Assembly (NCBI GenBank): GCA_023133655.1 | Contig: JAGLWB010000388.1 | Coordinates: 1-49,091 of the forward strand | From: Bacteroidales bacterium | GTDB taxonomy: Bacteria > Bacteroidota > Bacteroidia > Bacteroidales > JAGONC01 | Direction: 5' to 3' | DNA: 49,091 nt | Shown: positions 28,201-45,071 of the stretch, in pieces | Layout: each line of letters begins with the position of its first letter | How positions within the stretch are numbered: position 1 is the first letter of the stretch | Notes under the pieces: model-generated | What the model saw: only the letters and a program-made list of their open reading frames with translations | What the model was told of the DNA's origin: nothing | The model's database searches: none | Program-made: the position numbers and the translations under genes

Positions 28201-28628
28201 TGGATACAACATCGAACAAATCATCTGGATTTATTGGTAATTACCCCCAATACAGGCATACCTCCCGTGCAGCATACGAGAAAAACCGCGAATACCTGGT
28301 CGACCTGTTATTCAGGAAGAATAGTCATTCACATCAGAAAGAACACGATCCATTGCAAACTGCATCATTTTTCCTTCATCAAAATTATCCTAATCCGGTA
28401 AGCGAAACCACAACCATAAAATATACGATTTCCCAACAATCGGATGTAAAACTTAACGTTTACAATATTTTAGGAAGCATCGTCACTACATTGGTTAATG
28501 AAATGCAGCGTGAAGGCGAAAAACAGGTTACATTTAATATCCAAAATCTGTCAAACGGCCTGTATTATTATTCCCTAGTGGTCGATAACGAGATAATAGG
28601 AGTAAGAAAAATGTTGGTGCTGAGATAA
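25205..28628 (+). pseudogene. Papain-like (C1) cysteine protease with beta-helix/TPR-like region and T9SS type-A CTD, split by a +1 frameshift
   Basis: QFGGSCGQA (Gln/Cys), HAMTFVGY (His) and VNSWG (Asn) in 25205-26860. Removing one G at ~26819 gives EEGATLTIGDSVTIHAKTG...IGDHVNFIAD, joining 26913-28628, which ends in a QNYPNP...NGLYYY CTD. Confidence 0.82.
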
Positions 28629-28879: not shown

Positions 28880-30247
<1,368 letters not shown>

Positions 30248-30564
30248 TTAAATTAGTAATATGTTAATTCTTAGCTTATTATAATAGCTTATTTAAAAGG
30301 AAGCAATATTAATTAAAATATTTCGAATAAGAACAAGAAAAAAGTGTTTTTTTTGTTATGTTTATAGCAGTTGAATCCGGGTAAGCTTAACTTCACATCC
30401 AGGGTGTTTTAAGTATTGGATAATGAATATTTGTTGATGTTTAAAGAAATTCACATAGATTGATTGTCAATTATGGAAAATTTTGTAACTTTAAGCTTCA
30501 TATTAAAGATAATATATTCAACCCTGGATTGCTGTTTTTTATCAAATTTGCAGAAAAAAAGTAT

Positions 30565-33500
30565 ATGAAAAAGAAGGGACCTGAAGAAAAAAAGAAATCA
30601 GAAAACAATGCCATTAGCCCTGAATTGTACCAGTACCTGCTGGCAGAACGGCTTAAAGAATTATCCTGTATAAATCAAACCTCCCAAATACTCAGAGAAG
30701 GTAAGTCCATAGAAGAATCACTGCAGCAAATCAGTGAGATAATACCAAAGGCCTGGCAATATCCTGAGTTTACCGTTGCCAGAATCACATTCCGTGGAAT
30801 GGAATTTACCAGTCCAAACTTCAAAGAAACCCCCTGGTTTCTTAGCTATCCTTTTGCCACTATTGATAACCAGGAAGGAAGACTTGAAGTCTATTACCTG
30901 AAAGAGTTTCCATCCTCTGACGAAGGACCATTCTTAAAAGAAGAGCGAGACCTGATCAACAACCTGGCCGGAATAATCACCGGCTATTTAAACAGCGTTA
31001 AAGGAAAAACCCTTATTAAAAAGACAATTACTGATAAATCTGTGTTGGAAAAATTTTCACCGATAGCAGGGAAATCCAAATACAGCCGGCAGTTATTACA
31101 ATCATTTCTAAACAAAAGCAATCAAAACAGAGACATCTATCATGACTTGATGCCATTTAAAGTTAAAGAAATTTTGTTGGTCGCAAGCCTTTATGATGCT
31201 TATACCATAGAAAAGGAGGGTAAATTCTCTGAACATGTGCTTGAAGATTACCAACAACTCAACCTAACATCCATACCCCGGATTACCGGTGTGTCAACAC
31301 CGGAAGAGGCAATGGAGGAATTGCGAAAGAAACATTTTGACCTGGTGATTATCATGGTTGGGGTTGATAAAAAAGCACCATTAGGCCTCAGTTGTAAAGT
31401 TAAAAATGAATTTCCTTACATTCCTATCTTCCTCCTGCTGAATAATAATAGTGACATTGCATTTTACAATAAACAGGGTAAAAAAACAAAACACATTGCT
31501 AAAATATTTATATGGAATGGCGAGTCGAAGATGTTCTTTGCCATGATCAAACATGTTGAAGATAAAATCAATGCCGAGAATGATACAAAAATAGGCCTGG
31601 TAAGGATTATTCTCCTTGTTGAAGATTCAGCCATTTACTACTCCAGGTATTTACCCTTACTTTACAGTGTGGTGATGGATCAAACCAAACGCATCATGGA
31701 TGATGTCAGCACAGACGACCTTTACAAAGTCCTAAAACTCCGAGCCAGGCCAAAAATCCTGTTAGCAACAACTTTCGAGGAAGCGCTGAGTATTATTAAT
31801 CATTTCAAAGAATACATGCTTTGTTTGATCACTGATATGAAGTTTGAAAAAGAGGGCCGTTTGGATGAAAATGCCGGTGTAAGCCTGATCACAAATATCC
31901 GTAAAAAGTTTCCTCGATTGCCGATCATTTTACAATCATCCGAAACAACAAATGAGCGCATTGCACACGAACAAAAAGTGACCTTTATAGATAAAAACTC
32001 TGAAACCCTGTCACAGGATTTTAAGAGTTTTATTACCCATTACCTGGGCTTCGGTAACTTCGTGTATAAAAACAGTAAGGGAAAACAGATTGCTATCGCC
32101 AGATCACTTGATGAGTTTGAAAAACACCTGAGAACAATCCCGGATGATTCAATTCTTTATCACGCCAGGCGTGATCATTTTTCATTATGGTTAATGGCCA
32201 GGGGAGAGATACAAGCGGCAAAAGTCCTTCACCCGCGACGTACTTCAGATTTTAAAAATGCACCAAATATCAGGGAATACCTTATCAGTGTTATCAATAA
32301 ATTCAGAGATGAAAAGGACAGAGGAATGGTTATCCCTTTTAAGGCAACCTCTCTTCTCGATGAAAAAAACATCGTTAGCCTAATGCCAGGATCCTTGGGA
32401 GGTAAAGGCAGGGGTGTGACTTTTATCAACAACCTTATCTATAATTTTGATTTTTCGGCCCATGTGCCCAATATTAATATAAAGGCACCCATCACAGCTG
32501 TTATAGGAACAGAAGAATTTGAATATTTCCTGCAGCGAAATAAATTATATGACACAATCCTGAATCATCAGAATTATGAAGAAATTAAACGACTCTTCAT
32601 CAAAGGCAACCTAACACAAACGTTGATCAGCAAACTGAAAGTTGTTTTAAAAAACATAACCAAACCTATAGCTGTCAGATCATCAGGATTGTTTGAAGAC
32701 TCAATGATGCAGCCTTTTGCCGGTATCTTCGAAACCTTCTTATTGCCCAATAATCATCCCGATTTTAATGTTCGCCTCGAACATCTTACGAATGCCATCA
32801 AAATGGTTTTTGTATCCGTTTACTCACCGATTTCCCGCTCTTATATTGAGGCAGTTCATTATAAAATAGAGGAAGAAAAGATGGCAGTTGTAATCCAGGA
32901 AGTAGTAGGGAATCAATTCGGCAACACCTATTATCCACATATTAGCGGAGCAGCTCAATCATACAACTTCTATCCTTTCTCACATATGAAACCCGAAGAG
33001 GGTTTTGCTGTTATTGCTCTCGGACTGGGAAAATATGTTGTTGAGGGTGAGAAAGCATTTCGATTCTCTCCAAAATACCCAAATGCGGTCATAGATTCTC
33101 CAAAAGATCAATTCCGTAATTCTCAGGTTAATTTTTTTGCTGTTGATATGAATAAGAAAAATATTGACCTGTTGGAAGGAGATACTGCCGGGCTTATTCG
33201 ATTGGATATCGATGATGCAGAAATGCACGGGACGATGATCCACAGTGCTTCTGTTTACGATATAGATAATAACAGAATTACGCCCGGCTTGTCAGTACCC
33301 GGTCCCAGAATCCTGAATTTTGCCGATATTCTAAAGTATAATTACGTACCGCTGGCAAAAACCATTGAAATAGTCCTTGATGTTGTAAAAGAAGCCCTCG
33401 GATCCCCTGTTGAAATTGAGTTTGCAGTAGATCTGAAAAAAGACAGCAACTACAAAGCATCCTTTTATCTGCTTCAGATAAAACCCCTTATTGGAAGTGC

Positions 33501-34047
33501 TCAGGATTACAAAATCAACATGTCGGAGATCGATAAAAATCAAATATTACTTTATACTGAGAAGGGAATGGGAAACGGATTGATCAGTAACATTTGCGAT
33601 ATAGTTTACATCGACCGGGAAAAATTTGATAAAAGTAAAACGATTGAAATGGCTGAGGAGATTGAAAAAATAAATCAGGATTTTTTCAAAAAGAAAAAGC
33701 AATATATACTGATAGGGCCAGGCAGATGGGGCACCCGCGACAGATGGATTGGGATACCAGTAAAATGGCCCCAAATCTCTCAAGCCAAAATAATTGTAGA
33801 AACCAGCCTGGAGGGATATCCACTAGATGCATCTTCAGGATCACACTTTTTCCATAACCTCACTTCTATGAATGTAGGTTATTTCTCTATTCAGAACGAA
33901 ACCCCAGGCGCTTATATTAACTGGGAAATTCTCGAAAAACAAAAAGATGTAAAAGTAAACGGGTTCTTTAAACATATCCGGTTTGATTCGCCTTTATCTA
34001 TTAAAATGGATGGGAAAAAGCGGATAGCGGTGATAGCATTAGGGTAG
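30565..34047 (+). CDS. GAF-like + receiver domains + PEP/pyruvate-binding (PPDK_N ATP-grasp) multidomain protein, paralog 1
   Basis: N-terminal ERLKELSC..AWQYPE..EGPFLKEER GAF-like unit; REC (LLVED..LITD..LQSS..FIDK); GGKGRG, AVRSSGLFED..FAG, VEIEFA, LLQIKP; C-terminal SSGSHFFHN. Likely ATG at 30565. Confidence 0.85.
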   Translation: MKKKGPEEKKKSENNAISPELYQYLLAERLKELSCINQTSQILREGKSIEESLQQISEIIPKAWQYPEFTVARITFRGMEFTSPNFKETPWFLSYPFATIDNQEGRLEVYYLKEFPSSDEGPFLKEERDLINNLAGIITGYLNSVKGKTLIKKTITDKSVLEKFSPIAGKSKYSRQLLQSFLNKSNQNRDIYHDLMPFKVKEILLVASLYDAYTIEKEGKFSEHVLEDYQQLNLTSIPRITGVSTPEEAMEELRKKHFDLVIIMVGVDKKAPLGLSCKVKNEFPYIPIFLLLNNNSDIAFYNKQGKKTKHIAKIFIWNGESKMFFAMIKHVEDKINAENDTKIGLVRIILLVEDSAIYYSRYLPLLYSVVMDQTKRIMDDVSTDDLYKVLKLRARPKILLATTFEEALSIINHFKEYMLCLITDMKFEKEGRLDENAGVSLITNIRKKFPRLPIILQSSETTNERIAHEQKVTFIDKNSETLSQDFKSFITHYLGFGNFVYKNSKGKQIAIARSLDEFEKHLRTIPDDSILYHARRDHFSLWLMARGEIQAAKVLHPRRTSDFKNAPNIREYLISVINKFRDEKDRGMVIPFKATSLLDEKNIVSLMPGSLGGKGRGVTFINNLIYNFDFSAHVPNINIKAPITAVIGTEEFEYFLQRNKLYDTILNHQNYEEIKRLFIKGNLTQTLISKLKVVLKNITKPIAVRSSGLFEDSMMQPFAGIFETFLLPNNHPDFNVRLEHLTNAIKMVFVSVYSPISRSYIEAVHYKIEEEKMAVVIQEVVGNQFGNTYYPHISGAAQSYNFYPFSHMKPEEGFAVIALGLGKYVVEGEKAFRFSPKYPNAVIDSPKDQFRNSQVNFFAVDMNKKNIDLLEGDTAGLIRLDIDDAEMHGTMIHSASVYDIDNNRITPGLSVPGPRILNFADILKYNYVPLAKTIEIVLDVVKEALGSPVEIEFAVDLKKDSNYKASFYLLQIKPLIGSAQDYKINMSEIDKNQILLYTEKGMGNGLISNICDIVYIDREKFDKSKTIEMAEEIEKINQDFFKKKKQYILIGPGRWGTRDRWIGIPVKWPQISQAKIIVETSLEGYPLDASSGSHFFHNLTSMNVGYFSIQNETPGAYINWEILEKQKDVKVNGFFKHIRFDSPLSIKMDGKKRIAVIALG

Positions 34048-34075
34048 CAGATTAACGATTAACAAATAGCTGATA

Positions 34076-35476
34076 TCATAACCACACTCCGGTATTCAAA
34101 TACTCGTGAATCCCCCGTGCTGCCACTTTCCCAGCCCCCATAGCCAAAATGACCGTTGCAGCTCCTGTAGCAACATCTCCGCCGGCAAAAACACCCTTTT
34201 TGGATGTTTTACCTGTTTGAGGATCTGTTTTAATCGTTCCCCATTTCGTAACTTCAATATCTTTTGTTGTTGAGGAAATCAAAGGATTGGGGCTGTTACC
34301 AATAGCAATGATGACCACATCGACAGGAATCTTAAAATTGGCTCCTTCAATTGGAACAGGCCTTCTTCTTCCGGAATCATCAGGTTCGCCCAATTTCATC
34401 TTGATGCATTCTGCTTCTTTAACCCAACCGTTTTCATTACCGATGTAAGCCGCGGGGTTTGACAAGAGGTTAAATATAACGCCTTCTTGTTCAGCATGAT
34501 GGATCTCTTCCTCTCTGGCAGGCATTTGTTCCCGGGCCCTGCGGTAAATCAATATCGACTCTTCAGCACCCAGCCGCAATGCTGTCCGGGCACAATCCAT
34601 TGCAACATTGCCTCCTCCAACCGTAGCAACTCTTTTTCTTCGAATGATCGGAGTTTTATACTTGGGAAAAAGATAGGCTTTCATCAAATTGGCACGTGTA
34701 AGGTACTCATTTGCCGAATAGACACCATTGAGGTTCTCTCCGGGTATTTTCATGAACCATGGAAGTCCTGCTCCAGTCCCAAGGAAAACAGCATCGAACT
34801 CATCAAGTAACTCATCAATGCTTTTAATCATCCCGATAACATAATCTGTAAATATCTTAACACCAAGCTGCTTAAGAAAGTCTATTTCCTTGAATACGAT
34901 ATTCTTGGGCAATCTGAACTCAGGAATTCCATAAACAAGAACACCGCCTGGTTCATGAAGGGCTTCATAAATAACAACACCATGGCCCATTTTAGCCAAA
35001 TCAGCTGCAGCCGTGATACCAGCAGGGCCGGCACCTACTATAGCAATCTTTTTACCGGTGGAAGGAGGTAAAGAAGGTATTTGAATATCATCCTGGTCAC
35101 GCTCCCAGTCAGCCAGAAACCGCTCCAGCCTGCCAATGGCAATTGGTTCGTTTTTCTTTCCAACCACACATCTGATCTCACACTGCTCTTCCTGAGGGCA
35201 TACACGACCACAAATCGCCGGAAGAATATTCTTCTCCTTAAGCAGGTTAACCCCTTCCCTGAATTGATTCTGAGCAATAAAATTGATAAATCCCGGGATG
35301 TCAATCTCAACCGGACATCCTTGAACACACAAAGGTTTCTTGCACTGAAGACAGCGTTGGGCTTCCAGCACAGCCTCTTCAGAAGAATAGCCATAAGGAA
35401 CCTCGTTGAAGTTTCTGATACGTTCTTCAGGTGGCTGTTCCCTCATTGGGGTTTTCTTTGGACTTATCTTACCCAT
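34076..35476 (-). CDS. NfnB/SudA-like NADPH-dependent flavo-Fe-S oxidoreductase (GltD-like large subunit)
   Basis: RCLQCKKPLCVQGCP, CGRVCPQEEQCE, GAGPAG, YGIPEFRLP, GGGNVAMDCAR, YRR, GGDVATGAATVILAMGAG. Confidence 0.92.
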   Translation of the reverse strand: MGKISPKKTPMREQPPEERIRNFNEVPYGYSSEEAVLEAQRCLQCKKPLCVQGCPVEIDIPGFINFIAQNQFREGVNLLKEKNILPAICGRVCPQEEQCEIRCVVGKKNEPIAIGRLERFLADWERDQDDIQIPSLPPSTGKKIAIVGAGPAGITAAADLAKMGHGVVIYEALHEPGGVLVYGIPEFRLPKNIVFKEIDFLKQLGVKIFTDYVIGMIKSIDELLDEFDAVFLGTGAGLPWFMKIPGENLNGVYSANEYLTRANLMKAYLFPKYKTPIIRRKRVATVGGGNVAMDCARTALRLGAEESILIYRRAREQMPAREEEIHHAEQEGVIFNLLSNPAAYIGNENGWVKEAECIKMKLGEPDDSGRRRPVPIEGANFKIPVDVVIIAIGNSPNPLISSTTKDIEVTKWGTIKTDPQTGKTSKKGVFAGGDVATGAATVILAMGAGKVAARGIHEYLNTGVWL

Positions 35477-35480
35477 TTTA

Positions 35481-36290
35481 CTATCTTTCTTTCGATATGA
35501 TCTCTTCTTCCAAATATGCCTTGCGCCTGGTCAATACAACATCCCAATCTACCTCATGTCCATCAAAATGAGGACCATCAACACAAGCAAATTTTGTTAC
35601 CCCTCCTACTAAGAGCCTGCAAGCACCACACATACCTGTTCCGTCAATCATTACAGGATTCATACTAACAATAGTTTTAATTCCAAATGGCTTGGTAGCC
35701 TGGGATACCCTGTACATCATATAAGTACATCCAACAGCCATAATCCGGTCAAATCTTTCTCCAGATGCAAGATCATCCACCAAACGGTCATATGAATGTC
35801 CTTTCGTTCCCTGTGAACCATCTGTGGTAGAATACCGCACTTCATCAGAGGCTTCTTCAAGTTTTTTATTCCAGTATAATAAAAACTTACTCCTGGCCTC
35901 AGAATAACTCACAACTTTATTCCCTGCTTCTTTCAAAGCTCTGGCTGCCGGAAAGATGCCCCCGATACCATAACATCCCCCAACCAGGGCTACCGACCCA
36001 AACGCATTAATCTCAAAAGCCTTTCCAAGAGGTCCTGTAAAAGAATATATCTCATCTCCTTCACGCAATTCAGCAAGTCGCCGGGTTGCTGCTCCGATCT
36101 CCAGGAATATTATGGAAACAGTACCTTTGTCAGCATCCCAATCAGCAATCGTTATTGGGGTTCTTTCACTGTATTTATCCGGAATGACAATAACGAACTG
36201 GCCAGGAAGGGCTTTTCTGGCAATATCAGGCGCCATGACAACGAACTCATAGACATTTGGAACAATATGTCTCTTATTAATAATTTTCAT
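35481..36290 (-). CDS. NfnA/SudB-like FAD/[2Fe-2S] subunit (atypical NAD-binding motifs)
   Basis: PGQFVI, ERTPITIAD, GPLG, MIDGTGMCGACR...ACVDGP. Confidence 0.9.
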   Translation of the reverse strand: MKIINKRHIVPNVYEFVVMAPDIARKALPGQFVIVIPDKYSERTPITIADWDADKGTVSIIFLEIGAATRRLAELREGDEIYSFTGPLGKAFEINAFGSVALVGGCYGIGGIFPAARALKEAGNKVVSYSEARSKFLLYWNKKLEEASDEVRYSTTDGSQGTKGHSYDRLVDDLASGERFDRIMAVGCTYMMYRVSQATKPFGIKTIVSMNPVMIDGTGMCGACRLLVGGVTKFACVDGPHFDGHEVDWDVVLTRRKAYLEEEIISKER

Positions 36291-38887
36291 CAGTCAACAT
36301 CTTCAATTTTTGCATTGACAACACATCTTTCAGGGCTTAAGCCATCTGAGAATAAAGGAAGATCATCCCATGTTGGTTTAATGTAAGCTGCTTTACCATT
36401 GAGCCCAGACATTATCTTAACTTTAAAAACTTTTTTCCCAAATGTTGTGATTAACCTGACTTTTTCTCCATCCCGGGCTGTTAAATCCCTTAGTAACTTC
36501 TCAGAAACAAAAAGCACACTCTCTTCCCGTATTGCCTTCATGTCAGGAATCAGGGCAGATAATAAATTTCCCATGTAGTGAAAATGGTTTGGTTCAATGA
36601 TAACCTGGACAGGAAATTTATTGGATTTTCTGTGCTCTGTTCGGTTAACACTCATGAGCCTTTTGCTCTCAAATTCCGCAGTTGAAAAAGACAAATCAAT
36701 AACCGATTTTATTTCTGATAATATCATGTTCGCCCTTTTATATCCAAAGCCGTCTTGCCGCATTCCTTCTGCAATTTCTTGCATCGTTGCCCATGCAGGC
36801 CTGGCAAGCCCGGGCGGTTTAATCACAGGGGTAAATTTTTTCAACGATCGTTCAACATCAATAATGTGTCCTTCTGTTTCAGTAAAACTGCAAAGAGGTA
36901 ATACAATGTTTGCATAGTCAGACGTCTGGCTGAGAAACATGTTTTGCTGGACCATAAATTCCAGGTCGGCCAGGTTTTTGTGAGGCGGCATATCACCCAT
37001 TACAAACAGAGCCCTGATGCCGTCATTTGAAATATTCTTAATCATTTCATTGGCTGAAAGGCCTTTCTGATGAGGCAATTTTGTATTCCACAAACCAGCC
37101 CATTTATTATGATCTACTCTGTTGTGGACTCTGGCAAACCCGGCAAAATAATCAGGGTGGATGCCAACAAGTGTCCCACCGTACCTGTTTCCTTCATCTA
37201 ATAAAAATAATACACGGTTGTTTTCCAAACCACCAAGCAGGCGAGAAATATTGATTAAAAGATTAAAACTATTTTCGCTTTCCGGGCTTCTTAATATCCA
37301 TTCTCCAACAATGATATTGATTTTTCTGCTTTTGACCAGTGTACGAGCGAACTGTTCTATTTCTTCCATTCTGAACCCACCTATGCGTTCCAGCTTCCTT
37401 TGATTTGAATTCTCAAGAAGTTCCCGTACACTATCAGGCAATCTCTTTTTTAAAACGACACTTATATATGCCATCAGCATTGAAAGAAATGAATATTCCT
37501 TTCCCGGGTTGAAATTCACAAACAGATTCGAAAAGTCTGCTGTTCGGTTGTTGTGGGTGTGGGCAACCACGACCTGCTTTCCATTTTTATACGCTTTTCT
37601 GATCCTGTTCTCAACGATCGGGTGAGACGAGTAAGCCTGAGAACCAATTACAAATATGGTATCGGCACTTTCTATCTTGTTGAGCCCGATTGGAGGGAAA
37701 GCATTATAATACTCGTGAATCTTTTTCAATAAATTTTTACCGGGATATGAAAACAAAAGATCCACATTATTGGATTTCATGACCTTTCGGGTAAACTTTT
37801 GAAGGATGTAATTATTCTCAATCGAATCCTGTGCGGAGCCAATCATTCCAAACTGGCTTCCCTTGTATTTTTCGAGATTCCTTGCAATATACCGAATAGC
37901 ATCATCCCATGCTATTTCTACCCACCTGTTCTCTTTTTTAAGGAGAGGTTTATTAATCCTGTCGGGATGGTGAACAATGTCACCCGGAACAAATTTACCT
38001 CTGACGCATAGCTGAAGCGGCGCTGTTCTTTTACCAGGCTCAGGCCCAACATTAATGATTCTGTTACCTTTGGAATTTACATTCATTTTACATCCAACCG
38101 GGCATAAAACACAGGTTGTTATTGTTGAATTATCAGGACAACCAACCCAGCTCCCCATTTTTTCAGCTATCGATCCTGTCGGGCATACATCCACGCAAGC
38201 TCCGCAATATTCACATCCGGCATCTTTTTGTGACTCAAGAAAAGCAGTACCGACGAGGGTTGCATTTCCACGCTGAACAAAGGCCAGCACTCCACTGTTC
38301 CGTTCCTCGTTACAGATTCTCACACACCTGCCACATAAAACACACAGGTTATAATCAAGTTCATAAAAAGGATTGTCTTTTACCGGTTCTAATCCCCTGT
38401 AAGCAATTGGGAACCTGACATCCTTAAGTTCAAGGTATTCGACCAGATCCTGCAACTCACAATCTCCGTTTCTTGTACAAAAATTACATCCAGTGGTAAC
38501 GCCTACCTTTCTTGTACTATGCATATACTCTGAGCAATCATTTTTATCCTTGCAAATAAGACAAGTAAAGGTATGCTCAGAAAGGATAAGCTCAAGGATA
38601 TCTCTTCTGAGTATTTGAAGATCTGCTGTTTTTGTAATTATTTCCATTCCCTGACATACAGGCGTAGTACAGGCAGTTTGGTAGCCTTTTGAATTTTTTA
38701 TCTCAACCATACATAGGCGACACCCTCCATAATGTGGAAGGTTATCAAGATAGCAAAGTGTGGGGATATAAATCCCGGCTTTCCTGGCAGCTTCCAGTAT
38801 AGTTATACCTTCGGACACCATCATGGATTTGCCATCGATGGTAATCGATATTTTTTTGATTTTTTTCTTTTCAATAACTTCAGTCAT
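36290..38887 (-). CDS. NuoG/FdhA-like Fe-S subunit with molybdopterin-oxidoreductase fold lacking the Mo/W ligand
   Basis: [2Fe-2S] IPTLC..CRLC..TAC; His-ligated HxxxCxxCx5C; 2x[4Fe-4S]; TCVLCPVGC..LCVRG. NNVDLLFSYP stands where FDHs have NNVDxxARx(C/U)H. Confidence 0.85.
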   Translation of the reverse strand: MTEVIEKKKIKKISITIDGKSMMVSEGITILEAARKAGIYIPTLCYLDNLPHYGGCRLCMVEIKNSKGYQTACTTPVCQGMEIITKTADLQILRRDILELILSEHTFTCLICKDKNDCSEYMHSTRKVGVTTGCNFCTRNGDCELQDLVEYLELKDVRFPIAYRGLEPVKDNPFYELDYNLCVLCGRCVRICNEERNSGVLAFVQRGNATLVGTAFLESQKDAGCEYCGACVDVCPTGSIAEKMGSWVGCPDNSTITTCVLCPVGCKMNVNSKGNRIINVGPEPGKRTAPLQLCVRGKFVPGDIVHHPDRINKPLLKKENRWVEIAWDDAIRYIARNLEKYKGSQFGMIGSAQDSIENNYILQKFTRKVMKSNNVDLLFSYPGKNLLKKIHEYYNAFPPIGLNKIESADTIFVIGSQAYSSHPIVENRIRKAYKNGKQVVVAHTHNNRTADFSNLFVNFNPGKEYSFLSMLMAYISVVLKKRLPDSVRELLENSNQRKLERIGGFRMEEIEQFARTLVKSRKINIIVGEWILRSPESENSFNLLINISRLLGGLENNRVLFLLDEGNRYGGTLVGIHPDYFAGFARVHNRVDHNKWAGLWNTKLPHQKGLSANEMIKNISNDGIRALFVMGDMPPHKNLADLEFMVQQNMFLSQTSDYANIVLPLCSFTETEGHIIDVERSLKKFTPVIKPPGLARPAWATMQEIAEGMRQDGFGYKRANMILSEIKSVIDLSFSTAEFESKRLMSVNRTEHRKSNKFPVQVIIEPNHFHYMGNLLSALIPDMKAIREESVLFVSEKLLRDLTARDGEKVRLITTFGKKVFKVKIMSGLNGKAAYIKPTWDDLPLFSDGLSPERCVVNAKIEDVD

Positions 38888-38895
38888 CCTATATT

Positions 38896-40761
38896 CTATT
38901 CTATTACAATAGCATCACCTGCAATGGCATCAAACCGGCAGACCTCGTAACATGCCCTGCATTTGATACATTTCTCCGGATCAAGGTTATGAGGTTCACT
39001 ACGCGGCCCGGTAATAGCGCCTGTTGGGCACACCTCAACACACCGCTGACAACCCGTACATTTTTCTTTAATAACCCTGTATTCCACAAGGTCACGGCAA
39101 ACGGCAGCCGGACAGCGGTGGTCAATTATATGAGCCTCGTACTCATTCCTGAAATATTTTAAAGTAGTCAACACAGGGTTTGGGGCCGTTTGTCCAAGCC
39201 CGCATAACGAACCCATATTGATGGTGCCGGCCAGATTCTCAAGAATCTCAATATCTTCCATGACCCCTTTTCCTTCTGTGATCTTATTCAGGATCTCAAC
39301 CATTTTTCTTGTACCGATACGGCATGGAGTACACTTGCCACAGCTTTCCTGGCTTGTGAACCTAAGAAAATATTTAGCCACATCGACCATACAGGAATGT
39401 TCATCCATAACGATAAGGCCACCCGAACCCATGATAGACCCGGCAGAAGCCAGTGATTCATAATCAATGGGTAGGTCAAGGTAATCTTTCGACAGGCACC
39501 CACCTGAAGGACCGCCTGTTTGCACAGCCTTGAAAGGTTTATACGTTCCTCCTCCGATATCAAATATAATCTCTCTGAGCGTTGTTCCAAGTGGAACCTC
39601 AATCAATCCGGTTCTTCTGACTTTCCCAACCAGGGCAAAGGTCTTGGTTCCCTTGCTTTTTTCTGTTCCATAACCGGCATACCATTCCCCACCCTTTCGA
39701 AGAATATTGGGAATAGTACCAAGTGTTTCAACATTATTGATGGTTGTTGGTTTTCCATGTAGGCCGGAAATCGCTGGAAAGGGAGGCCGTGTTCGGGGCA
39801 TTCCCCGATGGCCTTCTATCGACGCTATCAAAGCCGTTTCCTCTCCACAGACAAAAGCCCCTGCGCCTTCTTTCAATTTTATATCAAAATCAAATCCACT
39901 GTTTAAAATATCCTTACCCAAAAAGCCGGAGTTCTTCATTTGGTCAATCGCCTTGATCAAACGCTCAATTGCCAATGGATATTCAGCCCGAATATAAATA
40001 TACCCAAAGGTTGCACCAATAGCAAAAGCAGCGATCAGCATCCCTTCCAACAAAGCAAATGGATCTCCTTCAATCAACGACCTGTTCATAAAAGCTCCGG
40101 GATCACCTTCGTCTGCATTGCAAATCAGGTATTTGGGGCTACCTTTTGCCTTCCGGCAAAATTGCCATTTTCTAAAAACAGGGAACCCTGCTCCACCCCT
40201 GCCCCTTAACCCGGAAACCTTTAACTCATCTATAATACCTGCTGCACCCATATTAAGTGCATTAATCAAGCCCTGAAATCCGTCTCTTGCTATATAATGC
40301 ATTATATTTTCCGGATCGATGATACCACAGTTGCGCAGAACAATACGCTTCTGATTTTTTAGCATGGGGAGGTCCCAAAAAGATTCTGTACCGTTAATTT
40401 TTCCCTCCGGCGCACCCAGGTGCCCCAGTGGTTTAAGTTTCGCCCCTCCGGTAAACAAATAGTCATCCAGGAGTTTTTCTGCACGTTCAGCATCAACATT
40501 GTTGAAAATAAACCGTGGGGATCCGGGAAGCTGGATGTCGAGGAAAGGCTCCAGGTAACAAGGACCGATACATCCAACTTTTATCAGGTCTACCTTCCTT
40601 TTCGATTTTAACAAGGCTTTCTGTACGCTGTTCCATACCGCCCCTGCTCCGGAAGCTAATCCGCAACTTCCCATGCCAATATAAATAACGGGATGTTGGC
40701 TATGCTGAAGCGCCTGCCATTCCTCTGTTGCCCTTTTTTGTATAGCGAGTATATCACTCAT
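38896..40761 (-). CDS. NuoF/HydB-like FMN/NADH-binding subunit with C-terminal 2x[4Fe-4S]
   Basis: SGLRGRGGAGFP, CNADEGDPGAFMNR, GAFVCGEETAL, GGPSGG, ESCGKCTPCR, SLCGLG, C-terminal CTGCQRC/CIKCRAC. Confidence 0.93.
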   Translation of the reverse strand: MSDILAIQKRATEEWQALQHSQHPVIYIGMGSCGLASGAGAVWNSVQKALLKSKRKVDLIKVGCIGPCYLEPFLDIQLPGSPRFIFNNVDAERAEKLLDDYLFTGGAKLKPLGHLGAPEGKINGTESFWDLPMLKNQKRIVLRNCGIIDPENIMHYIARDGFQGLINALNMGAAGIIDELKVSGLRGRGGAGFPVFRKWQFCRKAKGSPKYLICNADEGDPGAFMNRSLIEGDPFALLEGMLIAAFAIGATFGYIYIRAEYPLAIERLIKAIDQMKNSGFLGKDILNSGFDFDIKLKEGAGAFVCGEETALIASIEGHRGMPRTRPPFPAISGLHGKPTTINNVETLGTIPNILRKGGEWYAGYGTEKSKGTKTFALVGKVRRTGLIEVPLGTTLREIIFDIGGGTYKPFKAVQTGGPSGGCLSKDYLDLPIDYESLASAGSIMGSGGLIVMDEHSCMVDVAKYFLRFTSQESCGKCTPCRIGTRKMVEILNKITEGKGVMEDIEILENLAGTINMGSLCGLGQTAPNPVLTTLKYFRNEYEAHIIDHRCPAAVCRDLVEYRVIKEKCTGCQRCVEVCPTGAITGPRSEPHNLDPEKCIKCRACYEVCRFDAIAGDAIVIE

Positions 40762-41206
40762 ATTTCTTCAACACCTCTCTGATCTTAATCACAGACATCC
40801 GGCTGTGAATATCATTATTAACCATCATTACCGGGGCCAGCGCACAACATCCCAGGCATGCAACACGTGTCAGATCAAACCTTTTATCTTCGGTGGTTTG
40901 CCCAGGTTCAATACCAATTTCAAGCTGCAAGGCATTCAATAAAAAATCGCCACCCTGAACATGACAGGCTGTTCCAAGACATATCTTGATTGAATTTCTC
41001 CCTGGTGGATTGAAGCGAAACTGAGAATAAAAGGATGTAACACCAAATATAGTGCTGCGCGAAACGCGCAGGTAGCTTGAAATCTTTTCAATTGCCTCCT
41101 TTGATATGTAACCATAAAGACCCTGTGTCTGTTGAAGAACAGGTATCAGGCTCCCCTCATCGTTTTGGGGATATTTGCTAAGTAGGTTATTGAGGGAATC
41201 AGCCAT
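40754..41206 (-). CDS. NuoE/HydC-like [2Fe-2S] subunit
   Basis: GVTSFYSQF, ICLGTACHVQG, ACLGCCALAPV. Confidence 0.93.
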   Translation of the reverse strand: MADSLNNLLSKYPQNDEGSLIPVLQQTQGLYGYISKEAIEKISSYLRVSRSTIFGVTSFYSQFRFNPPGRNSIKICLGTACHVQGGDFLLNALQLEIGIEPGQTTEDKRFDLTRVACLGCCALAPVMMVNNDIHSRMSVIKIREVLKKYE

Positions 41207-41355
41207 AAAACAACCATTAATTTGATTAAACGGCCTTTGGAAAAATTAATTCCAAATGACAATGCTCAATAATACAATGAGATCCAAAAACAATTTCATA
41301 AAAATAAATAATAAAATTGTTTTCTGAAAATAATTATGCTTATTTATATTTTTTC

Positions 41356-41391
41356 CAGGCAAGGGACAGGTCGCAACCTGTCCCTTGCCTG
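41356..41391. repeat. Perfect 16-bp palindrome (REP-like) in the divergent promoter region
   Basis: CAGGCAAGGGACAGGT-CGCA-ACCTGTCCCTTGCCTG. Confidence 0.75.
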
Positions 41392-41542
41392 CTGCCATGA
41401 AACCATGGGCCCTCATTTATTTATACTGATTTTAAATATATATGATTCCTGGAAATATTGGATATTTTATCAGAAAAAATATCTAAAATTGTACCCCATT
41501 TTGAAAGGTTCAATTTGATTGTCATTAAAACACTAAAATAAC

Positions 41543-42397
41543 ATGGAAGATGTACTGCATGATTTTATATCATTTAACCTGAAATGCTCCATTTGCGGAC
41601 ATTCCCTGATGGATGAGGATCAACTTGTAGATGGTAGGCCGGGTGTTAAATTGGGTATTAAAACATCTAAGGGAGAAGGAACAATTATTTTAAGCTCCAT
41701 TTACGAAAGTTTTAATTTCCGATGTGATGTGGAAATGGATGAAGATGAAATAGTAGAATTCTCCTGCCCTCACTGTTCAAAGAAATTCGAAGGTTGTTTA
41801 GAATGTGATCACTGCGAGGCACCTATGGTTAAATTAGATCTCGACATTGGTGGTACCGTTTGTATTTGTACCCGAAAAGGTTGTAAACGACATTTCCTTG
41901 AGTTCGATGATTTTAACGCTGCCTTATACAAACTGACCTATCTGGGGGAATACAAAGAGGCGGTACCTGAAGGGATCAGAGAAACAGGAGAATCCAAAGA
42001 AATCATCGACTCCGGAACCTTTCTCCATCTTTATTGTCCCGTATGTGATAAATCACTGATCGATAAAGGCCTTGTCAAACTAAAAGTTATCAATGATACA
42101 GGAGAAAGCGGCCATGTATTCCTTAGCCCTTACCTGAATGTATTTACATCAAGATCTACTGTATTCCTTAAAGAAGATCAGGTAGTTAATGACATACAAT
42201 GCTTTCACTGTGAAACCAGTCTGATTAACAAAGGAAAGAAATGCGAAGAGTGTGGATCGCCAGCAGCTAAGGTTGCGATAGCGGCAAGAACGAAATTGAT
42301 TGACTTTTATATTTGTTCAAAAAAAGGCTGCCGCTGGCATGGGCTTTGTAACGATGATCTTCACGATATCGAACTTGAAGACAGTTTGGAATGGTGA
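41543..42397 (+). CDS. Hypothetical protein with two tandem Cys-rich (CxxC x3 + Cx4CxxH) domains
   Basis: Domain 1: CSIC..LSSIY..CPHC..CDHC..CTRKGCKRH. Domain 2: CPVC..LSPYL..CFHC..CEEC..CSKKGCRWH. Confidence 0.85.
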   Translation: MEDVLHDFISFNLKCSICGHSLMDEDQLVDGRPGVKLGIKTSKGEGTIILSSIYESFNFRCDVEMDEDEIVEFSCPHCSKKFEGCLECDHCEAPMVKLDLDIGGTVCICTRKGCKRHFLEFDDFNAALYKLTYLGEYKEAVPEGIRETGESKEIIDSGTFLHLYCPVCDKSLIDKGLVKLKVINDTGESGHVFLSPYLNVFTSRSTVFLKEDQVVNDIQCFHCETSLINKGKKCEECGSPAAKVAIAARTKLIDFYICSKKGCRWHGLCNDDLHDIELEDSLEW

Positions 42398-42446: not shown

Positions 42447-43271
42447 ATGTTTCAGATAAAAAGAAAACAATCTATGGCGAAAGAAACGATCATTCGTTTT
42501 GACATTGAAGCACCTAAGATTGCCCTAAAAATAAAACCCGGACAGTTTGTGATCATCAGAGTCAATGAAACAGGTGAAAGGATCCCATTAACTGTTGCCG
42601 ATAAAGATGCCTTTGAAGGCACCATAACCATAATCTTCCAGGTTGTTGGTAAAACAACAGCACTGATGCGGTCATTGAATGAAGGAGACTTCCTCCTGGA
42701 TGTTGTCGGACCATTAGGAAAAGCTGCTGAGATTGAAAATATAGGAACGGTAATAATGGTAGGTGGCGGCACAGGGGTTGCTATCCTGTATCATGTTACT
42801 AAAGCCTTTAAAGACGCAGGTAATCATGTGATAGTGATCATGGGTGCCAAGGAGAAAGAAATGCTGATCCTGGAAAACGAAATGAAAGCTATTTGTGATG
42901 AACTGGTCGTTACAACTGATGATGGTAGCTATGGTGAAAAAGGATTCGTTACCATGCCATTGGAAAGATATTTGAACGAACGTGATGATATTAAGATGAT
43001 CTATACCATTGGGCCAATCATAATGATGAAAAATATATGCAACCTGACAAAGCCGTATAATGTCCCAACGATGGTTTCTCTTAATCCTATTATGATTGAC
43101 GGAACAGGAATGTGTGGCGGATGCAGAGTAAAAATAGGTGGCAAAACTAAATTCAGTTGCGTTGACGGACCTGATTTCGATGGCCATGAGGTTGATTTTG
43201 ATGAATTGATGAGTAGAAATTCCCAATATCTTCAGGATGAAAAAGATTCACTCCTGTATTCAATAAAATAG
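42447..43271 (+). CDS. NfnA/SudB-like FAD/[2Fe-2S] NAD-binding subunit (canonical)
   Basis: PGQFVI, GERIPLTVAD, VGGGTGVA, IGPIIMM, MIDGTGMCGGCR..CVDGPDFDGH. Confidence 0.92.
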   Translation: MFQIKRKQSMAKETIIRFDIEAPKIALKIKPGQFVIIRVNETGERIPLTVADKDAFEGTITIIFQVVGKTTALMRSLNEGDFLLDVVGPLGKAAEIENIGTVIMVGGGTGVAILYHVTKAFKDAGNHVIVIMGAKEKEMLILENEMKAICDELVVTTDDGSYGEKGFVTMPLERYLNERDDIKMIYTIGPIIMMKNICNLTKPYNVPTMVSLNPIMIDGTGMCGGCRVKIGGKTKFSCVDGPDFDGHEVDFDELMSRNSQYLQDEKDSLLYSIK

Positions 43272-43286: not shown

Positions 43287-45071
43287 ATGTTAGAACAGGA
43301 AGTAAGATTATTAAAGTATAAAACCTATCTAAGTTATTATTGTCCGCATTGTAGCACAACTTTTAATGTTGAACGGCAAGACGAAAAGTCCCTGATCTTT
43401 AATGCTGCATACAAACAACAGGACCTTGTTGTGAAACTTAGTCCTTACCTTGATGTTTTTGACACCAAAACTTCCATCCCGGTCGAGGAAGGTGATATGC
43501 TTGACGACCTGATTTGTCCGCACTGCAAAAAAAGCCTGATTAACCATGAAGAAAAATGTGAGAAGTGTGGTTCTAAAGTGGGCGAAGTCATTGTATCAAC
43601 ACAAGCAAAATTAATTCCGTTCTATTTCTGCGTCAACCGAGGGTGCGACTGGCATGGGATTAAAAAAGCCGATCAAAAAACCATCAGACGGAAGATCCCG
43701 CGCCAGACTATGCCGGAGCAGGATCCGAAAATCAGGGCTCACAACTTCAAAGAAGTTCCTTACGGTTATACATCTGAGTTGGCCCTGTTAGAAGCCGACA
43801 GATGTCTGCAGTGTAAAAACCCGAAATGTGTCGAGGGATGTCCGGTAAACATCGATATTCCGGGCTTCATTAAACTTATTTCTGAAGAACAATTTGATGC
43901 AGCTGCCCGGAAAATTAAAGAAACAAACCTTTTCCCGGCAGTATGCGGAAGGGTATGCCCCCAGGAAAGTCAATGCGAAATTAAATGTATAGTCGGCATC
44001 AAAAATGAACCCGTTGCCATTGGCAGACTTGAACGTTTTGTTGCTGATTATGAGAGGGATATGAACCTGGTTGAAATAGTTGATATCAAAAAAAGTACCG
44101 GAAAAAAAATCGCTGTTATCGGATCAGGACCGGGAGGCCTTACCGTAGCTGCCGATATGCAAATATTAGGCTATGACGTGACTATCTTTGAGGCGCTGCA
44201 CGAAGCCGGAGGTGTTCTCACTTATGGTATCCCTGAATTCAGATTGCCCAAATCCATTGTCAATTTTGAAATAGACTATCTTGTTAAATTAGGCGTTAAA
44301 ATCGAATTAAATCATATCATCGGAAATATTCTGACCCTGGATGAATTACTCGAACATTTTGATGCAATATATATCGGCGTTGGCGCCGGGCTTCCATGGT
44401 TCATGGGCCTTGAAGGGGAAAGCCTCGGCAATGTTTATTCGGCCAATGAGTACCTTACACGTATGAACCTGATGAAGGCTTATAAATTTCCTGAATATGA
44501 CACACCTATGCCTAAAGGGAATAAAGTGGCTGTGATTGGTGGTGGAAATGTGGCTATGGACTGCGCAAGATCAGCCCTCAGATCTGGTTCCAAAGAGGTA
44601 AATATCGTTTATAGAAGATCAAAAAAAGAATTACCGGCCAGAGAGGAAGAGGTTCACCATGCAGAGCAGGAAGGGATTAACTTTCATCTGCTGACCAGCC
44701 CTATCCGATATTTTGGAGATAGAAGAAACATGGTAAAATCCATGGAATGTATACGGATGGAGCTTGGCGAACCTGATGCTTCGGGTAGAAGAAGGCCTTT
44801 ACCATTAGAAAATTCTAACTTTATGCTCGAATGTGACATGGCTATTGTGGCCATTGGAAACGGGCCAAACCCTATCCTCTTCAATTCAGCACCCGATCTG
44901 AAATTGAATAAAAGAGGTTATGTTGAAGTCAACGAGGAAACCGGTGAAACATCAAAAGAGTTTGTTTATGCCGGAGGTGATATTGTGACTGGAGCCGCAA
45001 CCGTAATCCTGGCCATGGGTGCAGGAAGAATAGCCGCCCGGGCCATGCACGAAAAGCTTTCTAAAATTTAA
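43287..45071 (+). CDS. NfnB/SudA-like NADPH oxidoreductase fused to an N-terminal Cys-rich domain
   Basis: Residues ~15-125: CPHC..LSPYL..CPHC..CEKC..CVNRGCDWH. Then a GltD-like body (RCLQC, CGRVCPQE, GSGPGG, GGGNVAMD, YRR, GAATVILAMGAG). Confidence 0.9.
   Translation: MLEQEVRLLKYKTYLSYYCPHCSTTFNVERQDEKSLIFNAAYKQQDLVVKLSPYLDVFDTKTSIPVEEGDMLDDLICPHCKKSLINHEEKCEKCGSKVGEVIVSTQAKLIPFYFCVNRGCDWHGIKKADQKTIRRKIPRQTMPEQDPKIRAHNFKEVPYGYTSELALLEADRCLQCKNPKCVEGCPVNIDIPGFIKLISEEQFDAAARKIKETNLFPAVCGRVCPQESQCEIKCIVGIKNEPVAIGRLERFVADYERDMNLVEIVDIKKSTGKKIAVIGSGPGGLTVAADMQILGYDVTIFEALHEAGGVLTYGIPEFRLPKSIVNFEIDYLVKLGVKIELNHIIGNILTLDELLEHFDAIYIGVGAGLPWFMGLEGESLGNVYSANEYLTRMNLMKAYKFPEYDTPMPKGNKVAVIGGGNVAMDCARSALRSGSKEVNIVYRRSKKELPAREEEVHHAEQEGINFHLLTSPIRYFGDRRNMVKSMECIRMELGEPDASGRRRPLPLENSNFMLECDMAIVAIGNGPNPILFNSAPDLKLNKRGYVEVNEETGETSKEFVYAGGDIVTGAATVILAMGAGRIAARAMHEKLSKI

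Follow-up and report, generated by a model that had tools for sequence, protein, structure and literature searches.

Contig JAGLWB010000388.1 of the Bacteroidales bacterium assembly GCA_023133655.1 (GTDB lineage Bacteria; Bacteroidota; Bacteroidia; Bacteroidales; JAGONC01) was analysed over positions 1-49,091 of its forward strand, and this whole stretch of 49,091 nucleotides (nt) is called the window. On its minus strand, between positions 34076 and 41206, lie five consecutive open reading frames (ORFs) in the order E-F-G-S-L, which combine subunits of the bifurcating Bfu family (E, F, G) with a pair of NfnS/NfnL-type flavoproteins (S, L). The gene set probably encodes one undescribed NADPH/NADH/ferredoxin enzyme, widespread in uncultured sediment bacteria and archaea, because the same set recurs in many of these organisms. 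It is moderately likely, judging from the predicted proteins, that the five genes specify a single soluble five-subunit Bfu-family NADP(H)/NAD(H)/ferredoxin oxidoreductase (transhydrogenase), here named Nfn-Bfu ABCSL. The genes and the sites discussed within them, with the basis of each assignment, are as follows.

40754..41206, minus strand: E, NuoE/HydC/BfuC-like [2Fe-2S] subunit, 150 amino acids (aa) (PF01257, NF005722)
38896..40761, minus strand: F, NuoF/HydB/BfuB-like subunit for flavin mononucleotide (FMN) and NAD(H), 621 aa (Pfam, motifs, alignments to chains of solved structures)
36290..38887, minus strand: G, NuoG-like and formate dehydrogenase (FDH)-like, BfuA-type iron-sulfur (Fe-S) subunit, 865 aa, with a pterin-type fold and without the Cys/Sec-His ligand (Pfam/NCBIfam, 6tg9_A)
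38459..38575, minus strand: G residues 105-143, H-x3-C-x2-C-x5-C, 15 residues and a second C-x2-C-x5-C, with seven potential ligands (family alignment)
37730..37774, minus strand: position of the Mo/W ligand motif of FDH, G residues 372-386, here SNNVDLLFSYPGKNL (alignment of related G)
35481..36290, minus strand: S, NfnS (NfnA/PyrK-like) subunit for flavin adenine dinucleotide (FAD) and [2Fe-2S], 269 aa, G-linked subtype (PRK06222, 5jca_S)
35727..35975, minus strand: Cys106 (GGCYG) and Cys188 (GCT) of S, inside motifs of the NAD-binding domain (alignment)
34076..35476, minus strand: L, NfnL (NfnB/GltD-like) subunit for FAD, NADP(H) and 2x[4Fe-4S], 466 aa (TIGR01316/PRK12778, 4ylf_B)

Gene order, distribution and co-inheritance

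The genes are closely packed, with an 8-nt overlap between E and F, an 8-nt gap between F and G, a 1-nt overlap between G and S and a 4-nt gap between S and L. The tight coupling claimed in a preliminary description of this DNA (overlaps or gaps below 10 nt) is therefore borne out by junctions of 1-8 nt. Relatives were collected by an alignment-based scan taking one genome per species, which yielded 197 relatives; the best 80 loci were kept and their ORFs were classed by phmmer against the window proteins. A scan of genome contigs with the single protein G gave no match, whereas the alignment-based scan did find relatives. Among the best 80 of the 197, the order E-F-G-S-L was found in more than 10 bacterial and archaeal phyla. 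The metagenome-assembled genomes (MAGs) concerned belong to Bacteroidales, Planctomycetota, Aminicenantes, Zixibacteria, Actinomycetes/Actinomycetota, Chloroflexi/Chloroflexota, Desulfobacterota, Syntrophorhabdus, TA06, WOR-3, Coatesbacteria and Eubacteriales, and among archaea to Thermoplasmatales (Thermoplasmatota), Thorarchaeota and Hodarchaeum (Hodarchaeota). Since the identical five-gene order is found again in dozens of unrelated genomes, the arrangement is well outside chance.

The related G genes number 80 (L005, L006 and L016-L095, minus L029 and L041, where no G ORF was called, and with L064 counted once), and 73 of them share with the window the absence of the metal-ligand motif discussed below. 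S and L stand directly downstream of 46 of these 73 ligand-less genes, with E and F also seen upstream in 33 of the 46; in three more, L was called and S fell outside the distance threshold, and in 11 the downstream region is lost at contig ends. The other 13, scored as without S and L, are 12 loci labelled Dehalococcoidia, SAR202 or Chloroflexi (11 with E-F upstream) and L024, in which L is present beyond the distance threshold. Of 52 G-to-S junctions, 50 measure at most 60 nt and the median is -4; these gaps are lower bounds, as ORF starts were set at the earliest start codon.

The operon is patchily distributed. A full-length G orthologue occurs in two of the 40 nearest relatives (G003, G005), and none was found at E <=1e-150 in 400 other genomes sampled across the phylum. 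Metagenomic proteins include more than 120 cluster representatives of G at 44-91% identity, the named ones being listed as 'molybdopterin-dependent oxidoreductase' from Bacteroidota, Zixibacteria or Planctomycetes MAGs, and the stretch itself is held by DNA runs of cold-seep and marine-sediment metagenomes from ten studies. In one of these runs (X7), a single contig (1431 nt, depth 10, shorter side 187 nt) links position 34051 with 41414, with 57 other letters at the joint; the 7362 nt left out are exactly the five genes. No direct or inverted repeats of >=8 nt flank this joint, and the remaining X7 contigs do carry the five genes; absence of the block is weakly indicated, by one contig at a likeness of >=90%.

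The four genes F, G, S and L travel together. Across 31 complete loci their pairwise distances correlate with r = 0.61-0.81, and the values for G-L (0.80), F-L (0.77) and G-S (0.76) stand against 0.81 for the known partners S and L; none of 999 permutations reached any of them.

Properties of the five subunits

By the criteria for the bifurcating BfuBC core of the Bfu family (Schut et al., 2022), E and F are predicted to be a bona fide bifurcating-type BfuC/BfuB core. E matches PF01257 (2Fe-2S_thioredx) at 160 bits over residues 6-149 and NF005722 (NuoE) at 146 bits against a cut-off of 141, and all four cysteines of a NuoE-type [2Fe-2S] subunit (cluster C1) are there, C76, C81, C117 and C121, in ICLGTAC...ACLGCC. 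F combines, according to Pfam, an N-terminal thioredoxin-like part with Complex1_51K, SLBB, NADH_4Fe-4S and two C-terminal Fer4 domains, and so has the FMN/NADH domain with the NuoF [4Fe-4S] (B1), the C-terminal 2x[4Fe-4S] domain (B3/B4) and the N-terminal thioredoxin-like domain (B5 site) of a BfuB. Residues 26-613 align end to end with the bifurcating BfuB chains of C. saccharolyticus NfnABC (9bov_B, 747 bits), T. sibiricus NfnABC (9n5u_B), S. ovata Stn (8oh5_B), NiFe-Bfu (7t2r_B) and A. woodii HydABC (7q4v_B), whereas non-bifurcating NuoF and FdsB chains match just residues ~150-545. The bifurcating-type features attributed earlier to this NuoF-like subunit, ADEGDPGAFM, GGPSGG and two C-terminal CxxCxxCxxxC motifs, are present in the translation, and the full-length BfuB alignment agrees with them.

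G contains Fer2_4, NADH-G_4Fe-4S_3 (the NuoG His-cluster motif), dicluster, Molybdop_Fe4S4 and Molybdopterin domains in Pfam and NCBIfam; the same scans returned no hydrogenase H-cluster domain and no PF01568, and Pfam returned neither Pyr_redox_2 nor Fer4_20, L being a separate ORF. The nearest solved chain is R. capsulatus FdsA (6tg9_A, 3.5e-83). An AlphaFold2 model (mean pLDDT 77.8) is confident over residues 300-865, mostly above 85 in the FDH fold, and Foldseek searches with it gave NAD-FDH alpha subunits as best matches, with FdhH 1fdi at TMt 0.75. The model thus predicts the four-domain pterin-binding fold of FDH, and a pterin-proximal CxxCxxxC...C lies at residues 259-294. The Cys/Sec-His ligand of the metal (xARx[C/U]H) is nevertheless missing: G reads NNVDLLFSYPG where the FDH motif is NNVDHCAR(L/V)(C/U)H. 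The preliminary description had reported a NuoG-like subunit lacking both an H-cluster and a Cys/Sec-His Mo ligand, and the domain scans and this segment bear it out on both counts.

Among the 80 related G genes the ligand motif [CS]ARx[CU]H is kept in seven, two of which have an in-frame TGA at the ligand position (L049, L072), and is absent in 73. The ligand-keeping genes with enough downstream sequence, carrying Cys or Sec, adjoin S and L (L033, L042, L071, L072), which means that the same operon also comes in FDH-active versions; the window type has the look of a derivative from which the ligand was lost. In the ligand-less proteins the ligand position shows no conserved Cys, Sec, Ser or Asp, and the segment varies among lineages. 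Mean pairwise identity within the family is 59-75% in the Fe-S part and 27-49% in the pterin part, the least conserved of the protein, and G is only ~540 aa long in five loci with S and L directly after it (L061, L062, L066, L079, L080). Owing to this variable segment, the low identity, the short forms and the inactive counterparts in StnC and NfnA, the pterin-like domain of G looks dispensable.

That G is instead an active molybdo- or tungsto-enzyme with a non-canonical ligand, serving as a formate-type or other dehydrogenase coupled to NAD, NADP and ferredoxin, is accordingly judged very improbable. The complete four-domain FDH fold predicted for it and the sibling operons with CARLCH or CARLUH beside the same S and L would suit such an activity, as would the presence in the source genome of moaC and a moaA-like gene (the latter below cut-off). 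Against it stand the unconserved ligand position, the poorly conserved pterin domain and the ~540-aa forms, together with the homologous domains of solved StnC and NfnA, reported to be without pterin (PMC10482914, PMC11829005). The genes for the molybdenum cofactor are in any case accounted for by its other users in the genome, namely two genes each of AOR and XDH type and, on contig C320, a true FDH-type subunit. A genome without pterin synthesis was also considered and rejected, moaC and the moaA-like gene being present; genome content is neutral on the pterin question.

The best-conserved stretch of G (74.5% mean pairwise identity) is a doubled NuoG His-cluster motif, in which H105-x3-C109-x2-C112-x5-C118 is followed after 15 residues by C134-x2-C137-x5-C143. 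Its seven ligand residues are invariant in 24 of 24 family members, and the doubling is seen in every related G tabulated except L033; an in-frame stop interrupts it in L052, and L074 has an extended form. Only one copy of the triad occurs in the solved NuoG, HydA and FdsA chains, and either half of the G motif aligns to it. In the StnA-like fusion proteins of relatives, the NfnL-like domain begins directly after the His of this motif. From these features we infer that the doubled motif may be the docking surface for L and that the spare triad may bind an additional cluster or metal.

S matches PRK06222 (NfnS/PyrK-like) at 340 bits, P. furiosus NfnS (5jca_S) at 268 bits without a gap and T. 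maritima NfnA (4ylf_A) at 224 bits. It has the hallmarks of an NfnS, the ERxPxT FAD strand (ERTPIT) and the Asp and three Cys of the [2Fe-2S] cluster (MIDGTGMCGACR...FACVDGP), these cysteines being present in 31 of 31 sequences. The NAD(H) motifs, a GGGVG loop and GP, are by contrast replaced by GGCYG and GCT, and S gives no Pfam NAD_binding_1 or FAD_binding_6 match, whereas S2, from a second Nfn-like pair of the window described below, does match. The replacement is general in S proteins that follow G, with GGC(Y/F)G for GGGVG and GC(T/P/A/N) for GP. Both cysteines occur in 53 of 55 G-adjacent S, the exceptions being the FDH-active Chloroflexi loci L033 and L042. The positions of Cys106 and Cys188 are Gly and Pro in solved 5jca_S, 4ylf_A and 5vj7_B (none of the three with Cys) and in the second pairs of the window, L017 and L018.

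An independent sample at the level of the order, 120 other genomes of which the best 29 loci were kept, gave the same division. GGC[YF]G appears in five of the 29, with a G-like ORF directly upstream in four and a contig that starts at S in the fifth. The 23 stand-alone pairs have no Cys at either site where found (GP in 23, GGGVG in 20, loop unmatched in three), and their 1.5-kb flanks contain no G-like ORF; the one remaining locus encodes a fused S-L protein, whose motif was not scored. By these signatures, S and L of the operon are assigned to a subtype of their own, in which the region that serves NAD(H) binding in canonical NfnS is remodelled, and for this reason an ordinary Nfn lying alongside by chance is disfavoured. 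The preliminary description held that NfnB is separate here and that an NfnA is added. The first part stands, since L has its own 466-aa ORF; the second fails for a canonical NfnS, given GGCYG and GCT, and because the NAD-binding motifs of S are replaced a normal second NAD(H) site cannot be assumed.

The two new cysteines of S could alternatively form, next to its flavin, a redox pair or metal site in place of the NAD(H) pocket, with NAD(P)H and ferredoxin coupled to reduction of a disulfide, polysulfide or small protein as third substrate. The location of C106 and C188 within both nucleotide-binding motifs, their retention in nearly all G-linked S and the missing NAD_binding_1 match accord with this, as does the occurrence of the organism in cold-seep and marine-sediment metagenomes; NfnSL and the StnC homologue NsoC were, moreover, first described with sulfur-reductase activities (PMC5736913, PMC10482914). 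The substitutions may, however, merely retune NAD(H) binding, and the ordinary motifs persist in the FDH-active Chloroflexi operons L033 and L042, whose gene order is the same. Such a thiol or sulfur substrate is regarded as improbable.

L matches TIGR01316/PRK12778 (NfnL/GltD-like) at 606 bits. Over residues 7-465 it aligns to T. maritima NfnB (4ylf_B) at 610 bits with a gap of only two residues; its score is 539 bits with P. furiosus NfnL, falling to 360 with the NfnL-like domain of Csac NfnA (9bov_A). The cluster and FAD motifs as defined for Nfn (PMC6405883) are retained, RCx2Cx4Cx3CPV, GRVCPQExQCx3C and the Arg of GIPEFRLP, in keeping with an NfnL that has Rossmann folds for FAD and NADPH. 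In an alignment of 24 rows R188 and seven of the eight cluster cysteines are invariant, and C89 is conserved in >=90%. This Arg, at the flavin N5, is also kept by the non-bifurcating StnC/NfnA proteins, as by bifurcating NfnL (PMC12018979). A further mark of the operon type is V291 in GGGNVAMD, found in 31 of 31 G-linked L; the residue is Thr in the solved Nfn chains and in 22 of the 23 stand-alone pairs.

A tree of L interleaves the phyla, with for example a Desulfocapsaceae sequence within the Bacteroidota clade; it derives from a quick, unfinished search with L2 as its sole independent stand-alone reference, and shows only that L of the operon departs from taxonomy. The StnA-like fusions of relatives form a long-branch outgroup in it. 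A recent splitting of Stn was considered as the origin of the window form and rejected, the fused forms being on a long separate branch and L far closer to free NfnL.

The second NfnS/NfnL-like pair of the window (42447-43271 and 43287-45071, plus strand) lies on the strand opposite to the operon. S2 has ordinary GGGTG/GP motifs, and L2, of 594 aa, is extended at its N-terminus by a Cys-rich stretch of ~130 aa. The Bacteroidales loci L017, L018 and L021 likewise have a second, Nfn-like pair beside E-F-G-S-L (S2 being lost at the contig end in L021), and all three have a homologue of the 284-aa protein, P0123, encoded between second pair and operon (41543-42397, plus strand). P0123 consists of two Cys-rich zinc-ribbon-like repeats, CxxC...CPHC...CxxC...GCxWH, and has no Pfam or NCBIfam match. 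The repeat recurs as the N-terminus of L2 and as the C-terminal extension of a NuoE-like protein on contig C311 of the same genome (L096:11012-12043).

One enzyme or two

The likeness of S and L to free Nfn raises the alternative of two enzymes in one operon, with S and L an ordinary NfnSL and E-F-G a Bfu-type module that works independently of it. The third partner of this module would be the product of a gene elsewhere, or else a second ferredoxin or flavodoxin, and the genes would be co-transcribed only because both enzymes balance the NAD(P)H and ferredoxin pools. S and L indeed align nearly full-length, with gaps of at most two residues, to solved stand-alone NfnSL, and all their cluster and FAD motifs are kept. 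This alternative is nonetheless thought rather unlikely. G-linked S is altered exactly in the NAD-binding motifs (53/55, as against 0/23 in stand-alone pairs and 0/3 in solved chains), a second Nfn-like pair with ordinary motifs lies beside the operon, and E-F-G has no catalytic site of its own. The synteny, with 4-nt overlaps, extends across bacterial and archaeal phyla, and homologous modules are fused in related systems.

The preferred reading as one enzyme has several points to its disadvantage, which are collected here. S and L closely resemble free-standing Nfn and show no obvious docking insert, so they could work alone; according to a 2019 review, nfn genes occur in varied clusters and may even adjoin the genes of a multimeric hydrogenase with which no complex is formed (PMC6405883). 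The distance correlations and the block loss are explicable by linkage alone. The Fe-S region of G at residues 103-249 has pLDDT below 50 in the AlphaFold2 model, which leaves the proposed docking site without geometric support, and the extra triad is not specific to S and L, being present also in FDH-active G and in the Dehalococcoidia loci with a reductase-type gene described below. The genome makes molybdopterin and G is predicted to keep the complete FDH fold, so that G may conceivably bind the cofactor. Finally, a search of sequencing runs found DNA contigs only and no RNA run among the holders of the stretch, a result with no bearing on expression.

Domains, motifs, synteny, co-inheritance and subtypes are matters of sequence; assembly, docking site, substrates and direction of electron flow are put forward on their basis. 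The cofactor motifs of the operon comprise FMN, two FAD and at least 10 Fe-S sites. In the five-subunit enzyme, E and F would constitute the BfuC/BfuB core with FMN, an NAD(H) site and C-terminal clusters facing ferredoxin. G would be a BfuA-type wire with a [2Fe-2S], a His-ligated cluster, two [4Fe-4S] and a pterin-proximal [4Fe-4S], probably with a further metal site from the extra triad, and its FDH-like domain would act as a scaffold after loss of the metal ligand. NADPH would bind at L and reduce its FAD, and the two [4Fe-4S] of L would pass electrons into G near the duplicated Cys motif and from there to the E/F site. There, as in Stn/NfnABC, NAD+ and ferredoxin would each receive a share of the electrons, or the reaction would run the other way. 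The FAD and [2Fe-2S] of S would be the second, high-potential branch from the L flavin, a role that S should still be able to fill because it keeps the FAD strand and the [2Fe-2S] ligands; as its NAD pocket has gained two cysteines and an aromatic residue, this branch need not end at NAD(H).

The five-subunit transhydrogenase of the preliminary description is thus partly supported, as one functional unit in which a second normal NAD(H) site cannot be assumed. A single transhydrogenase is favoured because synteny, co-inheritance and fused relatives point to one functional unit, and E-F-G would need a partner since G alone is without a site for a third substrate.

Two potential bifurcation sites, also suggested earlier, are a hypothesis. 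In a tandem scheme, considered possible but doubtful, the L flavin would split the electrons of NADPH, and the low-potential branch would enter G rather than free ferredoxin and be split again at E/F; the remodelled two-Cys pocket of S would then be the outlet or control point of the high-potential branch. With potentials of -380 mV for NADPH and -280 mV for NADH (PMC9304861, Table 1), the limiting case of 4 NADPH + 3 NAD+ + oxidised ferredoxin could, by our own arithmetic, take ferredoxin electrons to about -680 mV. If tandem bifurcation proved true, this would be well below what either known transhydrogenase delivers, and an enzyme widespread in anoxic sediments (in Asgard archaea, Thermoplasmatota, Bacteroidota and Aminicenantes, among others) would be a natural fusion of the two machines.

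Neighbouring genes, related architectures and known systems

Upstream of E lies one further feature.

41207..41542, no strand: divergent intergenic region 5' of E, containing a hairpin

The hairpin is perfect (41358-41389; 14-bp stem, 4-nt loop, GGCAAGGGACAGGT-CGCA-ACCTGTCCCTTGCC) and is located ~150 nt upstream of the E start. Scans for sigma-70 consensus promoters (21 sites, 17.6 expected from shuffles) and for terminators (7 sites, 7.5 expected) gave no excess over shuffles, both being ill-suited to Bacteroidota. Two genes from the operon, an NADP-specific glutamate dehydrogenase (GDH) is encoded at 28880-30235 on the minus strand (NF006929, 769 bits against a cut-off of 536), and in the Thermoplasmatales locus L043 a GDH homologue and a PPDK_N-domain protein are directly upstream of E-F-G-S-L. 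This neighbourhood fits, as circumstantial evidence, NADPH disposal from amino-acid oxidation. Giant PPDK_N-domain proteins are encoded in the window at 30460-34047 (1195 aa) and 45201-48170 (989 aa, with a receiver domain), both on the plus strand. Such giants repeatedly adjoin NfnL-type genes, namely both Nfn-like pairs of the window and the StnA-like fusion genes of relatives (further occurrences being on contig C183 of the source genome and in loci L011, L014, L041 and L043), and they stand directly upstream of E-F-G-S-L in Thermoplasmatales MAGs. Two proteins with Por_Secre_tail (type IX secretion) sorting domains, at 24391-25212 and 26913-28628 on the plus strand, are consistent with a Bacteroidota host.

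Other combinations of a Bfu-type core with a nucleotide-binding flavoprotein occur in relatives and in the same genome. In Dehalococcoidia/SAR202 loci, E-F-G with a ligand-less G is followed by a ~250-aa NAD_binding_1 protein with RAYS, TGVVP and CGHPGM, which we take to be a classical ferredoxin-NADP reductase (FNR). The loci L070, L083, L088, L091 and L095 have a G of ~930 aa, and the following protein matches Pfam NAD_binding_1 in L083, L091 and L095 and has the same motifs in L070 and L088; this suggests a further, uncharacterised attachment of an NAD(P)H module to a Bfu-type core. NuoF::GltD fusions are found in Planctomycetota and Hydrogenedentes loci and on contigs C311 and C320 of the source genome, and an NfnL-like domain is also fused to an F-type protein in L079. 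Contig C320 (L098) encodes NuoE, a 1009-aa NuoF::GltD fusion and an FDH-type subunit, a paralogue of G that keeps TNNVDHCARLCH, including CARLCH, has a single His-cluster motif and is truncated where the contig stops. The organism thus seems to have, in addition, a Bfu-type enzyme that is NADP-linked and FDH-active. Contig C311 (L096:5054-15787) encodes a sigma-54 two-component pair, NuoE with a Cys-rich extension, a 1058-aa NuoF::GltD fusion, a HoxU/NuoG-like protein of 234 aa, a GltB-like Glu_synthase-domain protein of 527 aa and a Nitro_FeMo-Co-domain protein, and may represent another, uncharacterised NuoEF-based enzyme. Judged by predicted domains, Bfu-type cores recruit NADP(H)-type flavoproteins by at least four routes: fusion to A, fusion to B, a separate S and L pair, and a separate FNR. 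Fusion to A is the only one characterised so far.

Among known systems, the comparison with Stn made in the preliminary description is apt. In StnC/NfnA an NfnL-like domain has been fused into a NuoG/FDH-like protein whose pterin domain is inactive (PMC10482914, PMC11829005), and the Stn/NfnABC enzymes of Sporomusa ovata, Caldicellulosiruptor saccharolyticus and Thermococcus sibiricus (8oh5, 9bov, 9n5u) have the same BfuB/BfuC-type core, which F matches at 718-747 bits. Also common to them and the window are a NuoG-like subunit whose FDH-like domain is catalytically dead and an NADP(H)-FAD module of the NfnL/GltD type that contains two [4Fe-4S] (PMC10482914, PMC11829005). The FDH-like domains of StnC and Csac NfnA are reported as catalytically inactive or without pterin density, that of Stn mediating tetramer formation (PMC10482914, PMC11829005), and the absent ligand motif places G of the window in the same class. 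The differences concern the NADP(H) module: the large subunit of Stn/NfnABC includes the NfnL-like domain as a fusion (in Stn a GltD domain at residues 102-565, after the N-terminal [2Fe-2S] domain; PMC10482914), whereas L of the window is separate and scores 610 bits against free NfnB as compared with 360 against the fused domain. G of the window has its extra Cys triad at the Stn/NfnABC fusion point. In the words of its description, 'there is no NfnA homologue in Stn' (PMC10482914), whereas the window has S.

NfnSL of Thermotoga maritima (4ylf) and Pyrococcus furiosus (5jca) shares with S and L the near-full-length alignment, ERxPxT, the Asp/Cys [2Fe-2S] ligands, the L motifs and the flavin-N5 Arg. 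It is a two-subunit stand-alone enzyme with no HydBC homologue (PMC10482914), while the window pair is tied to E-F-G in an operon, and S has Cys for Gly and Pro in the NAD-binding motifs and L has V291 for Thr; the operon context would argue against a stand-alone S/L heterodimer. The NAD-dependent and Bfu-type FDHs (FdsABG, 6tg9; Fdh-Bfu, Schut et al., 2022) have the E-F-G order in common with the window, and FdsA is nearest to G in sequence and fold. FDH-active versions of the operon with S and L occur in Chloroflexota and Desulfobacteraceae MAGs, whereas G of the window is without the Cys/Sec-His ligand, and FdsB lacks the extra BfuB domains of F and covers part of F only.

The Type 2/3 Bfu enzymes (NiFe-Bfu ABCSL, Wor-Bfu ABCSL) and Bam-Bfu follow the same design, BfuABC with extra subunits feeding BfuA, and in Bam-Bfu the Bfu module was proposed to be coupled to a second bifurcating module, HdrA (PMC9304861). 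Here the extra subunits are homologues of NfnS and NfnL, whereas the SL of known ABCSL enzymes is unrelated to NfnSL (JBC 2025, PMC12018979). The main text of PMC9304861 mentions no Bfu type in which NfnSL subunits are separate; its supplementary tables, outside the search, might list such a clade. A Bfu core with separate NfnS and NfnL was likewise not found described in the available text of PMC11829005, PMC12018979, PMC10482914, PMC6405883, PMC5736913, PMC11406978, PMC13689815 and the preprint 10.1101/765248, and PMC10482914 and PMC13689815 state the opposite expectation.

Recent literature presents NfnSL and Stn/NfnABC as two distinct solutions to one problem. The operon joins homologues of every subunit of both machines in one translationally coupled unit, from Bacteroidota to Asgard archaea of anoxic sediments; in many uncultured sediment lineages its genes are at present annotated as 'molybdopterin oxidoreductase', 'NuoEF' and 'glutamate synthase small subunit'. 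If they form one complex, it would be a new subunit architecture for the Bfu family, and the modelling of the NADPH/NADH/ferredoxin balance in many uncultured sediment lineages would change. The wiring of two bifurcating sites in series would become directly testable, and the natural split-versus-fused series of FDH-active, pterin-less split and fused Stn forms could show how bifurcating modules recombine.

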